From: Escherichia coli
Lineage (GTDB): Bacteria > Pseudomonadota > Gammaproteobacteria > Enterobacterales > Enterobacteriaceae
Direction: 5' to 3' (one strand)
Assembly: GCF_050320075.1 (NCBI RefSeq)
Contig: NZ_CP190018.1
Length of the DNA: 64,000 bases
Shown: one piece after another, positions 58,888 to 62,355 of the stretch
How the letters are laid out: each line of letters begins with the position of its first letter
Position numbering within the stretch: the stretch's first letter is position 1
Notes under the pieces: model-generated
What the model saw: only the letters and a program-made list of their open reading frames with translations
Told to the model about the DNA's origin: nothing
Database searches by the model: none
Program-made: the position numbers and the translations under genes

Positions 58888-59017
58888 AACCATCCTCAAA
58901 ATGTACTTTTTGTCTGAATGTAGACTATCACGGGAAAACTCTCTGAACAGTTGACGCACATCAATCTAACTTTCATTCGAAAGTATTTTAATGTTTGAAC
59001 GAAACAGAGAGGCAACT

Positions 59018-59917
59018 ATGATTTTCAATATTCAGCGCTACTCGACCCATGATGGCCCCGGTATCCGCACGGTCGTATTTCTTAAAGGCTGTTCGCTGGG
59101 CTGCCGCTGGTGTCAGAACCCGGAAAGCCGCGCCCGCACGCAGGATCTGCTGTATGACGCACGACTGTGTCTGGAAGGCTGCGAGCTGTGCGCTAAGGCC
59201 GCGCCGGAAGTGATTGAGCGCGCGCTGAATGGCTTGCTTATTCATCGGGAAAAGTTAACCCCGGAGCATCTGACAGCGTTAACCGACTGCTGCCCGACAC
59301 AGGCGTTAACCGTATGTGGTGAAGTGAAAAGCGTTGAGGAGATAATGAAGACCGTTCTGCGCGATAAACCGTTTTACGATCGCAGCGGCGGCGGCTTAAC
59401 GCTTTCTGGCGGTGAACCGTTTATGCAGCCGGAAATGGCGACGGCGCTACTGCAAGCCAGCCACGAGGCCGGCATTCATACTGCGGTAGAAACCTGTCTG
59501 CATGTGCCGTGGAAATATATCACCCCTTCTCTGCCCTATATCGATCTGTTTCTTGCCGATTTAAAACACGTTGCCGACGCACCGTTTAAACAATGGACCG
59601 ACGGTAACGCCGCCAGGGTGCTGGATAACCTGAAAAAACTCGCCGCAGCGGGCAAAAAAATCATTATCCGCGTGCCGCTGATTCAGGGCTTTAATGCCGA
59701 CGAAACCTCTGTAAAAGCCATTACCGATTTTGCTGCCGACGAGCTGCACGTTGGCGAAATTCATTTCCTGCCCTACCACACGCTGGGCATCAACAAATAT
59801 CACTTACTTAATCTGCCCTATGACGCCCCGGAAAAACCGCTTGATGCGCCAGAACTGCTCGACTTTGCCCAGCAGTATGCCTGCCAGAAAGGGTTAACCG
59901 CGACCTTACGAGGATAA
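59018..59917 (+). CDS. pflE: Glycyl-radical-enzyme activating enzyme (radical SAM) PflE/YbiY
   Basis: 299 aa from ATG 59018; [12 protein letters not shown] radical-SAM cluster motif plus extra ferredoxin-like cysteines; immediately upstream of a PFL-like gene. Confidence 0.9.
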
Positions 59918-59922
59918 CAACC

Positions 59923-62355
59923 ATGACCACACTGAAACTGGACACGCTCAGCGACCGCATTAAAGCGCACAAAAATGCGCTGGTGCATATTGTGAAACCG
60001 CCGGTCTGTACCGAGCGCGCGCAGCACTATACTGAGATGTATCAACAACATCTCGATAAGCCGATCCCGGTACGTCGCGCGCTGGCGCTGGCGCATCACC
60101 TGGCGAATCGCACTATCTGGATCAAGCACGATGAGTTGATCATTGGCAACCAGGCAAGCGAAGTTCGCGCCGCGCCGATCTTCCCGGAATATACTGTCTC
60201 GTGGATCGAAAAAGAGATTGATGATCTGGCAGATCGTCCCGGTGCTGGCTTTGCGGTGAGCGAAGAGAACAAACGCGTTCTGCATGAAGTGTGCCCGTGG
60301 TGGCGCGGTCAGACCGTACAGGATCGCTGCTACGGCATGTTTACCGATGAGCAAAAAGGTCTGCTGGCGACCGGCATCATTAAAGCGGAAGGCAATATGA
60401 CCTCCGGCGATGCGCACCTGGCGGTCAATTTCCCGCTGCTGCTGGAAAAAGGGCTTGATGGTCTGCGCGAGAAAGTAGCGGAACGTCGCTCGCGCATCAA
60501 CCTGACGGTGCTGGAAGATTTACACGGTGAGCAATTCCTGAAAGCGATTGATATCGTGCTGGTGGCAGTCAGTGAACACATTGAACGTTTCGCTGCCCTG
60601 GCGCGTGAAATGGCCGCGACCGAAACTCGCGAAAGCCGTCGCGATGAGCTGCTGGCGATAGCAGAAAACTGCGATCTTATCGCCCACCAACCGCCGCAGA
60701 CTTTCTGGCAGGCGCTGCAACTGTGTTACTTCATCCAGTTGATTTTGCAGATTGAATCTAACGGTCACTCCGTATCTTTTGGTCGTATGGACCAGTATCT
60801 GTACCCGTATTATCGTCGCGACGTTGAACTCAACCAGACGCTGGATCGTGAACACGCCATCGAGATGCTGCATAGCTGCTGGCTGAAATTGCTGGAAGTG
60901 AACAAGATCCGCTCCGGCTCACACTCAAAAGCCTCTGCGGGAAGTCCGCTGTATCAGAACGTCACTATTGGCGGGCAAAATCTGGTTGATGGTCAACCAA
61001 TGGACGCGGTGAATCCACTCTCTTACGCGATCCTCGAATCCTGCGGTCGCCTGCGTTCCACTCAGCCTAACCTCAGCGTGCGTTACCATGCAGGAATGAG
61101 CAACGATTTCCTCGACGCCTGCGTACAGGTGATCCGTTGCGGCTTCGGGATGCCGGCGTTCAACAACGACGAAATCGTGATCCCGGAATTTATTAAACTC
61201 GGTATTGAACCGCAGGACGCTTACGACTATGCAGCGATTGGTTGTATCGAAACCGCCGTCGGTGGCAAATGGGGCTATCGCTGTACCGGCATGAGCTTTA
61301 TCAACTTCGCCCGTGTGATGCTGGCGGCGCTGGAAGGCGGTCGTGATGCCACCAGCGGCAAAGTGTTCCTGCCACAAGAAAAAGCGTTGTCGGCAGGTAA
61401 CTTCAACAACTTCGATGAAGTGATGGACGCGTGGGATACGCAAATCCGTTACTACACCCGCAAATCAATCGAAATTGAGTATGTCGTCGACACCATGCTG
61501 GAAGAGAACGTACACGATATTCTCTGCTCGGCGCTGGTGGATGACTGTATTGAGCGAGCGAAAAGTATCAAACAAGGCGGCGCGAAATATGACTGGGTTT
61601 CTGGCCTGCAGGTTGGCATTGCCAACCTCGGCAACAGCCTGGCGGCAGTGAAGAAACTGGTATTTGAACAGGGCGCGATTGGTCAGCAACAGCTGGCTGC
61701 CGCACTGGCGGATGACTTCGATGGCCTGACTCATGAGCAACTGCGTCAGCGGCTGATTAACGGTGCGCCGAAGTACGGCAACGACGATGATACCGTCGAT
61801 ACGCTGCTGGCTCGCGCTTATCAGACCTATATCGACGAACTGAAACAGTACCATAACCCACGCTACGGTCGTGGTCCGGTTGGCGGCAACTATTACGCGG
61901 GTACGTCGTCTATCTCCGCTAACGTACCGTTTGGCGCGCAGACTATGGCAACACCGGACGGGCGTAAAGCCCACACCCCGCTGGCAGAAGGCGCAAGCCC
62001 GGCTTCCGGTACTGATCATCTTGGCCCTACTGCGGTCATTGGCTCGGTGGGTAAACTGCCTACGGCAGCGATTCTCGGCGGCGTGTTGCTCAACCAGAAA
62101 CTGAATCCAGCAACACTGGAGAACGAATCTGACAAGCAGAAACTGATGATCCTGCTGCGCACCTTCTTCGAGGTGCATAAAGGCTGGCATATTCAGTACA
62201 ACATCGTTTCCCGCGAGACGCTGCTGGAAGCGAAAAAACATCCGGATCAGTACCGCGATCTGGTAGTGCGTGTCGCGGGTTATTCCGCCTTCTTCACCGC
62301 GCTCTCTCCAGACGCTCAGGACGATATCATCGCCCGTACTGAACATATGCTGTAA
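59923..62355 (+). CDS. pflF: Pyruvate formate-lyase-like glycyl radical enzyme PflF/YbiW (substrate not established)
   Basis: 810-aa ORF; C-terminal glycyl-radical motif RVAGYSAFF; PFL-family size and architecture. Confidence 0.9.
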   Translation: MTTLKLDTLSDRIKAHKNALVHIVKPPVCTERAQHYTEMYQQHLDKPIPVRRALALAHHLANRTIWIKHDELIIGNQASEVRAAPIFPEYTVSWIEKEIDDLADRPGAGFAVSEENKRVLHEVCPWWRGQTVQDRCYGMFTDEQKGLLATGIIKAEGNMTSGDAHLAVNFPLLLEKGLDGLREKVAERRSRINLTVLEDLHGEQFLKAIDIVLVAVSEHIERFAALAREMAATETRESRRDELLAIAENCDLIAHQPPQTFWQALQLCYFIQLILQIESNGHSVSFGRMDQYLYPYYRRDVELNQTLDREHAIEMLHSCWLKLLEVNKIRSGSHSKASAGSPLYQNVTIGGQNLVDGQPMDAVNPLSYAILESCGRLRSTQPNLSVRYHAGMSNDFLDACVQVIRCGFGMPAFNNDEIVIPEFIKLGIEPQDAYDYAAIGCIETAVGGKWGYRCTGMSFINFARVMLAALEGGRDATSGKVFLPQEKALSAGNFNNFDEVMDAWDTQIRYYTRKSIEIEYVVDTMLEENVHDILCSALVDDCIERAKSIKQGGAKYDWVSGLQVGIANLGNSLAAVKKLVFEQGAIGQQQLAAALADDFDGLTHEQLRQRLINGAPKYGNDDDTVDTLLARAYQTYIDELKQYHNPRYGRGPVGGNYYAGTSSISANVPFGAQTMATPDGRKAHTPLAEGASPASGTDHLGPTAVIGSVGKLPTAAILGGVLLNQKLNPATLENESDKQKLMILLRTFFEVHKGWHIQYNIVSRETLLEAKKHPDQYRDLVVRVAGYSAFFTALSPDAQDDIIARTEHML

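Follow-up and report, generated by a model that had tools for sequence, protein, structure and literature searches.

The ybiY-ybiW Genes of Escherichia coli as a Glycyl-Radical Lyase System for 1,5-Anhydroglucitol-6-Phosphate with Proposed YciT and FNR Control

Introduction

Among the glycyl-radical enzymes (GREs) of Escherichia coli, YbiW (PflF), with its activase YbiY (PflE), and PflD, with its activase PflC, are now linked to the cleavage of phosphorylated anhydro sugars. The present text concerns the ybiY-ybiW gene pair as it occurs at 59018-62355 in a 64,000-nucleotide stretch of E. coli DNA, referred to below as the window. According to the summary given in a 2025 review (PMC12441222), Ma et al. 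(J Am Chem Soc 146:26187, 2024) reported that YbiW splits 1,5-anhydroglucitol-6-phosphate (AG6P) to 1-deoxyfructose-6-phosphate, and PflD splits the mannitol epimer, 1,5-anhydromannitol-6-phosphate, to the same product. The same summary states that both 1,5-anhydroglucitol and 1,5-anhydromannitol are phosphorylated by a phosphotransferase system (PTS), and that the AG6P pathway enables E. coli and many gut bacteria to grow on 1,5-anhydroglucitol in the absence of oxygen (PMC12441222). Structures have been deposited in the PDB as "Probable dehydratase YbiW" (8id7 and 8yjn) and "Probable dehydratase PflD" (8yjo). The compound is of wider relevance: 1,5-anhydroglucitol serves clinically as a marker of glycaemia, and patients deficient in G6PC3 or G6PT develop neutropenia because of its 6-phosphate.

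The question of the YbiW substrate is already solved, and substrate, product, structures and growth phenotype were all published in 2024, so that nothing new is offered there. The initial annotation of this DNA had taken the substrate as not established, a claim to be given up should the literature assign one. With AG6P assigned by Ma et al. in the account of the review (PMC12441222), and a substrate and pathway thus in print, this open-problem claim is therefore refuted on its own terms. Database annotation has stayed behind: RefSeq products are named either "putative pyruvate formate lyase" or "glycyl radical protein", a preprint of 2026 still lists ybiYW as unannotated, and the false lead of an unknown substrate is likely to recur.

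The evidence assembled here identifies ybiY-ybiW, with high confidence, as the AG6P glycyl-radical lyase system of E. coli, and a pathway and YciT/FNR regulation are proposed with it below. The regulatory layer is partly new, in that the adjacency of yciT to ybiYW in other genomes, an FNR-type box and a linkage between ybiU and yciT are added to the published YciT data.

Identity of the Locus and of the YbiY Activase

The 3365-base-pair (bp) ybiY-ybiW stretch is 100% identical in DNA sequence to several E. coli chromosomes that carry the ybiY/ybiW annotation, and the pair was found in 5425 of 5426 complete E. coli genomes; it is therefore core E. coli DNA. Two tandem open reading frames (ORFs) on the plus strand make up this stretch, the first of 308 amino acids (aa) in its longest form (58991-59917) and the second of 810 aa (59923-62355). 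Their identification as pflE-pflF (ybiY-ybiW), made from the window's letters, was confirmed by RefSeq annotation, Pfam and NCBIfam. The second ORF is ybiW (pflF), a glycyl radical enzyme gene on the plus strand whose assignment as a ring-opening C-O lyase of AG6P is based on K-12 orthology, the PDB entries and the review summary (PMC12441222). Its product shares 806 of 810 residues (99.5%) with K-12 YbiW, none of the four substitutions (K182E, I246M, R474H and E769D) falling in the Cys loop or the Gly loop, and matched the PDB entries 8id7/8yjn with 1855 bits.

The upstream gene, ybiY (pflE; 59018-59917, plus strand), encodes the 299-aa radical S-adenosylmethionine (SAM) activase of YbiW, and its stop codon is separated from ybiW by 5 nucleotides (nt). 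The product scored 369.7 bits on TIGR02494 (cut-off 174.35), matched Pfam Radical_SAM, and carries the CX3CX2C motif CSLGCRWC at residues 25-32 (59090-59113), the same motif that had been noticed in the activase at the outset. The gene beside ybiW thus encodes the radical-SAM activase with CX3CX2C that is looked for in a glycyl radical enzyme system.

Two start codons come into question for ybiY. The ATG at 58991, proposed in the initial annotation, is the first of the longest ORF, whereas RefSeq places the start at 59018, where a Shine-Dalgarno-like stretch, rich in A and G and with GAGG at its end (59007-59011), precedes the ATG. Aligned upstream regions showed that the ATG at 58991 is kept only within Escherichia and shares bases with the conserved -10 hexamer described below; the real start is therefore 59018, which replaces the earlier one. 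Further along, the CX3CX2C pattern recurs in YbiY as CLEGCELC (residues 51-58) and is joined by Cys91, Cys92 and Cys100 (residues 51-100 together, window 59168-59317), which makes six auxiliary cysteines, whereas two ferredoxin-type clusters would call for eight. These cysteines surround a 27-residue segment (residues 65-91 in the alignment) that is missing from PflC, to which YbiY is 36% identical.

Family and Active Site of YbiW

YbiW consists of the Pfam domains PFL-like and Gly_radical, the latter scoring 112.6 bits (cut-off 22.2). The glycyl-radical loop RVAGYSAFF, correctly recognised in the 810-aa enzyme from the start, occupies residues 783-791 (62269-62295), with Gly786 encoded at 62278-62280, and its first five residues (RVAGY, 783-787) match the glycine-radical motif RVxG[FWY].

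Legacy names such as pflF and "formate C-acetyltransferase" would make YbiW a second pyruvate or 2-ketoacid formate-lyase (PFL), a reading for which the K-12 RefSeq product name, the name of PDB entry 6xs4, the Pfam PFL-like fold and 25% identity to PflB can be cited. It can nevertheless be set aside as practically excluded. On the PFL equivalog TIGR01255, YbiW scored 160.8 bits, below the cut-off of 994.2, and on TIGR01774, the PFL2/glycerol-dehydratase family, it scored 1408.9 bits against a cut-off of 678.2. Alignment of the window YbiW with K-12 YbiW, PflD and PflB revealed an invariant Cys441 (61243-61245) in a catalytic loop that reads GC441IE443 in YbiW (Glu443 at 61249-61251) and GCVE in PflD, where PflB has Cys-Cys; no CC dipeptide occurs in the whole YbiW protein, and hence no PflB-type Cys-Cys pair. 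The Cys-x-Glu loop and the score far under the PFL equivalog cut-off therefore mean that "PFL-like" describes the fold only, and the substrate published for YbiW is, in the summary of the review, AG6P (PMC12441222). The active-site comparison with characterised glycyl radical enzymes that was suggested together with the initial annotation has thus been carried out, and it groups YbiW with the diol dehydratases through Cys-x-Glu and not with PflB.

The closest solved structure other than that of an ortholog is the B12-independent glycerol dehydratase (E 6e-164). Of the residues with which this dehydratase contacts its substrate, His164 and His281-Ser282 correspond to His165 and His282-Ser283 of YbiW, and these are conserved.

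Proposed Mechanism and Pathway

In the pathway put forward for this locus, 1,5-anhydroglucitol would become AG6P on PTS uptake, as described in the literature. Under anoxia YbiY would place the radical on Gly786 of YbiW, which is what is known of the family, and the Gly786 radical would then generate a Cys441 thiyl radical able to take the C2 hydrogen of AG6P. Glu443 may serve as the base while the ring oxygen leaves C1 through a spin-centre-shift elimination, the roles of these residues being read from the alignment. Return of the hydrogen to C1 would yield a 1-deoxy-2-ketose, namely 1-deoxyfructose-6-phosphate, the product named in the literature. An elimination of the diol-dehydratase type that starts at the C2 hydrogen would explain why one product arises from both C2 epimers.

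Downstream of YbiW, FsaA and then GldA would act, an order supported by the gene context. FsaA or FsaB reportedly splits 1-deoxyfructose-6-phosphate into hydroxyacetone and glyceraldehyde-3-phosphate, and GldA is said to reduce the hydroxyacetone to 1,2-propanediol. In the window, fsaA (58225-58887, minus strand), the gene of fructose-6-phosphate aldolase 1 (NCBIfam NF009296, 452 bits; RefSeq annotation), is divergent from ybiY and lies 130 bp upstream of it. At the paralogous K-12 locus, gldA-fsaB-ptsA is divergent from frwC-frwB-pflD-pflC-frwD, and FsaB is 70% identical to FsaA. With fsaA beside ybiYW and fsaB beside pflDC, a divergent FSA aldolase is therefore present at both GRE loci of E. 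coli.

The earlier suggestion of an anaerobic sugar-phosphate pathway tied to fsaA is borne out by the AG6P pathway literature as reviewed (PMC12441222). The cluster proposed with it stands for fsaA and for ybiV, the latter 145 bp downstream of ybiW, and fails for ybjI, a gene at about 34658-35473 that is separated from the pair by about 25 unrelated genes and is annotated as a riboflavin-pathway phosphatase; at a distance of 23.5 kilobases and with this annotation, ybjI is therefore outside the cluster.

Conservation across Enterobacterales

A scan of one genome per species yielded 80 loci, all from Enterobacterales and with YbiW 85-99% identical, which form the set for the counts given below. 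Most of these loci have the order moeAB-fsaA-ybiYW-ybiV-ybiU, fsaA adjoining ybiYW in 62 of the 80 and ybiV lying directly 3' of ybiW in 59. Identity ranges for proteins of the same locus were 63-96% for YbiY, 67-96% for FsaA and 73-98% for YbiV, so that the identity of YbiW is far above that of its neighbours, which indicates an unusually strong constraint on the enzyme.

This constraint bears on the alternative that YbiW is a broader radical dehydratase whose main substrate is some other diol or polyol phosphate, AG6P being one of several substrates in vitro. The depositors' name "Probable dehydratase YbiW", the nearest characterised relatives (glycerol and propanediol dehydratases) and the conservation of Cys-x-Glu, His165 and His282-Ser283 all speak for such an enzyme. 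The alternative is still very improbable, since the range of 85-99% for YbiW versus 63-96% for YbiY argues for a specific, constrained function and the equivalent of the glycerol-dehydratase Asp447 is missing. In addition, the review as summarised maps the YbiW/PflD pair to two C2 epimers with a common product, which is a coherent and specific assignment, and reports growth on 1,5-anhydroglucitol (PMC12441222).

A specific lyase within a dedicated pathway, as preferred here, also fits the arrangement in Rouxiella aceris (locus L071, 4074-16249), where a yciT homologue, ybiU, fsaA, ybiY and ybiW stand in one cluster. Also present in this cluster are genes for a ROK-family sugar kinase and a glycerol dehydrogenase, another yciT homologue, and the gene of an MFS transporter of the glucose/fucose type; from this gene content it appears to be a full, PTS-independent version of the pathway.

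A Probable YciT Operator

The exact 13-mer CTTTCATTCGAAA is present in three copies in the window, all of them intergenic and each just upstream of a cluster gene. The first copy (58970-58982) is contained in the palindrome ACTTTC-ATTC-GAAAGT (58969-58984, plus strand), a putative YciT site, designated O1, in the control region shared by fsaA and ybiY. The second, an exact match at 62418-62430 (plus strand), lies upstream of ybiV and abuts a perfect TATAAT (62431-62436), and the third, likewise exact, is found at 63439-63451 (minus strand), 17-29 nt 5' of the start codon of ybiU.

When upstream regions of the 80-locus set were searched with at most one mismatch to the 13-mer, the operator was detected upstream of ybiY in 73 of 80 loci (50-55 nt 5' of the start), upstream of ybiV in 49 of 59 (80-85 nt 5' of the gene) and upstream of ybiU in 56 of 57. 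The control promoters of moeA (0 of 56 loci) and ybiT (0 of 13 loci) had none, and essentially all 180 operator matches in 1.46 Mb were the ybiY, ybiV and ybiU sites. No operator of the YciT type was found at the paralogous pflD locus.

Published work connects these promoters to YciT, a regulator of the DeoR family. A ChIP-exo study located YciT at ybiV, ybiY and fsaA and reported altered expression in a yciT mutant, and a study combining reporters with DNA chromatography and mass spectrometry identified YciT as a repressor at the ybiY promoter. The reporter study also described the ybiY promoter as active anaerobically, with an activator footprint of an unnamed protein; relative to the start site predicted there, YciT was positioned at about -5 and the activator at about -20.

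Gene context points in the same direction. Homologues of yciT, 58-78% identical, adjoin ybiYW in 11 loci (L056, L062, L070, L071, L075, L076, L077, L079, L080, L081 and L083), and in Buttiauxella and Franconibacter the order is yciW-rnb-pdeR-X-fsaA-ybiY-ybiW-yciT-osmB, to be compared with yciW-rnb-pdeR-yciZ-yciT-osmB at the E. coli yciT locus (K-12, L086, 5598-6347). As fsaA-ybiYW is located at the yciT locus in these two genera, regulator and target have therefore become separated in E. coli, and the adjacency of yciT together with insertion of the cluster at the yciT locus marks YciT as the cognate regulator. Judged from these sequence patterns, CTTTCATTCGAAA is likely the YciT operator, and YciT would repress through this operator of 13-16 bp at the fsaA/ybiY, ybiV and ybiU promoters, in part as already published. 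Both ybiV and ybiU are probably members of the ybiYW/YciT regulon.

The ybiY Promoter and an FNR-Type Box

Just 5' of the operator lies the FNR-type box TTGAC-GCAC-ATCAA (58951-58964, plus strand), a putative class II activator site with 9 of 10 matches to TTGAT-N4-ATCAA. The predicted -10 hexamer of the ybiY promoter, TTTAAT (58987-58992, plus strand), recurs in over 90% of the 81 upstream regions that were aligned. The pattern TTGAY-N4-RTCAA is kept in 72 of the 80 loci, its central tetranucleotide taking 33 different forms, and the gap of 5 nt between box and operator is fixed in 70 of these 72, as would be expected of an FNR dimer site at a class II promoter. Transcription of ybiY probably starts near 58999-59000, a spacing that suits an FNR site at -41.5. 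FNR is thus a good candidate for the missing anaerobic activator of this promoter, and a site of the FNR type directly 5' of the ybiY operator would provide anaerobic activation.

A generic sigma-70 scan found no excess over shuffled sequence, and its lone match near ybiY (58995-59022) was rejected as it overlaps the start codon. At the other end of the transcript, a GC-rich hairpin (62363-62387, plus strand), an inverted repeat with 12-nt arms that are 92% complementary, directly follows the ybiW stop codon and probably marks where the ybiYW transcript ends. As a T-run is missing, its role as a terminator can only be inferred.

The Neighbouring Genes ybiV and ybiU and the Yersinia sgr Locus

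The gene ybiV (62501-63316, plus strand) encodes a Cof-type HAD sugar phosphatase (TIGR00099, 220 bits; PDB 1rlm and 2hf2) and has its own operator-bearing promoter. It is followed by the 5' part of ybiU (63468-64000, plus strand), which encodes a Gig2-like/DUF1479 protein (RefSeq; Pfam PF07350, 514.7 bits) and continues past the window end. The full ybiU gene is seen at 5797-7062 of locus L004, and solved YbiU structures are available as PDB 2dbi, 2dbn and 2csg. His202-x-Asp204 and His339/His344 are invariant in YbiU, an HxD...H pattern that suggests an Fe(II) oxygenase-type site. Besides this pattern, a second-hand label of "DUF1479-family oxidase" forms the basis of the oxygenase idea; an AlphaFold model of YbiU from a 10-sequence alignment had a mean pLDDT of 46.4 and was unusable. 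In Rouxiella (L071) and Mangrovibacter (L080), ybiU is located directly upstream of a yciT homologue on the same strand, and in Mangrovibacter, where ybiU has been relocated, the operator moves along with it.

A different setting was found in Yersinia alsatica and Y. frederiksenii (L084, 6310-13134, and L085), in which ybiYW is flanked by sgrR and by a sugar efflux gene of the SetA type; these Yersinia ybiYW loci have no fsaA, yciT, FNR box or operator. An SgrS-like sequence (L084, 11441-11563) begins 8 nt past the ybiW stop codon, with an Rfam score of 26.2 bits compared with a gathering score of 37, and its 3' pairing region and terminator resemble those of E. coli SgrS. Upstream, this locus has a thiamine pyrophosphate riboswitch ahead of thiB.

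The presence of an AG6P lyase inside a glucose-phosphate stress locus motivates the alternative that YbiW mainly detoxifies AG6P, a dead-end glucose-6-phosphate analogue produced by the glucose PTS, and that growth on 1,5-anhydroglucitol is a by-product. YbiW would then lyse AG6P under anoxia and YbiV would perhaps dephosphorylate it. This explanation draws on the Yersinia arrangement, with ybiYW between sgrR and the SgrS-like RNA plus SetA-type gene and without a nearby fsaA or yciT, on the sugar phosphatase with matching operator 3' of ybiW in 59 of 80 loci, and on the toxicity of AG6P to human cells, where a phosphatase clears it according to the review summary (PMC12441222). It is nonetheless rather unlikely, as the review also reports anaerobic growth on 1,5-anhydroglucitol (PMC12441222), the aldolase is tightly linked, and the transporter, kinase and glycerol dehydrogenase added in Rouxiella resemble a full catabolic route; the Yersinia SgrS match, moreover, stays under the Rfam gathering score.

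A wider proposal can be made, tentatively, of a conserved AG6P regulon with FNR as the activator, YciT acting through its ACTTTCATTCGAAAGT operator and released by a metabolite, and YbiV/YbiU as an oxygen-compatible branch. Under this speculative extension YciT might leave the three promoters (ACTTTCATTCGAAAGT) in response to AG6P or 1-deoxyfructose-6-phosphate, and YbiV and YbiU might dispose of AG6P in air, for instance by C1 hydroxylation to glucose-6-phosphate. The sgrR-ybiYW-SgrS-setA order might likewise tie AG6P to the sugar-phosphate stress response. Should YbiU or YbiV indeed act on AG6P in air, this would meet the wish expressed in the review for an aerobic 1,5-anhydroglucitol-degrading activity (PMC12441222).

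Elsewhere in the window, an IS1 copy (48488-49255) lies in a region matching pdeI (yliE). In the otherwise near-identical strain CFSAN061763, it is the neighbouring diguanylate cyclase gene that carries IS1; in the window this gene looks intact.

Evidence Weighing against the Assignment

Several observations count against the assignment of ybiY-ybiW to an FNR- and YciT-controlled AG6P pathway. The enzymology of YbiW is taken from a review summary and from the names of PDB entries, and the FsaA and GldA steps are partly general background. In the active site, the position of glycerol dehydratase Asp447 is Thr/Gly in the YbiW sequence RCTGMSF and is not conserved; the active-site roles of glycerol dehydratase are therefore not transferable one-to-one to YbiW, and this difference fits a substrate other than that of glycerol dehydratase. 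Klebsiella, Raoultella, Phytobacter and some Kosakonia have no fsaA between moeB and ybiY. The operator and FNR-type box are kept at the fsaA-less loci (L018, L029, L033, L034, L036, L040-L042, L045, L063, L072 and L073), so that either another aldolase is used there or the promoter serves ybiYW only. As for FNR, its pattern had 4 matches in the whole window versus 2.7 expected, which is not significant, and the phylogenetic footprint was relied on instead; no paper linking ybiY to FNR was found in the literature library that was searched, and the start predicted in the reporter study differs from the one proposed here.

Comparison with Known Systems

The matching locus is E. coli K-12 ybiYW (b0823/b0824), with the same gene order moeAB-fsaA-ybiYW-ybiV-ybiU and a ybiY promoter region that differs at 2 bases only. 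Differences between the window and K-12 amount to strain-level polymorphism, and the lineage of the window also has a LacI/MFS/GH31 island past ybiU, outside the window. This island, between ybiU and ybiT, consists of genes for a LacI-family regulator, an MFS transporter and a GH31 glycoside hydrolase (L001, 14710-19787), which K-12 lacks.

PflB and PflA have in common with YbiW and YbiY the fold, the glycine-radical motif and the radical-SAM activase. PflB, at 25% identity to YbiW, cleaves a C-C bond and has the pair Cys418-Cys419, in place of which YbiW has one Cys with a Glu after it. Closer in chemistry are the glycerol dehydratase of Clostridium butyricum (PDB 1r8w) and related 1,2-diol dehydratases, with which YbiW has both the TIGR01774 family and the Cys-x-Glu loop in common, and a similar logic of radical beta-elimination probably applies to both. 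The leaving group differs, being the ring ether oxygen of a phosphorylated cyclic polyol in YbiW and a hydroxyl in the diol dehydratases, as far as the review summary goes (PMC12441222).

A further close system is PflD/PflC (b3951/b3952; PDB 8yjo), for which the review summary gives the same reaction type and product as for YbiW (PMC12441222). PflD has the Cys-x-Glu loop and the RVAGYSAFF glycine loop of YbiW, at 39% overall identity, and is without two insertions present in YbiW. Its locus differs in having its own PTS genes (frwCBD and ptsA) and gldA beside fsaB, unlike the ybiYW locus. In the active site, PflD has Ala-Ser-Ser in place of the Gly-His282-Ser of YbiW, a difference that is a plausible determinant of which C2 epimer each enzyme accepts.

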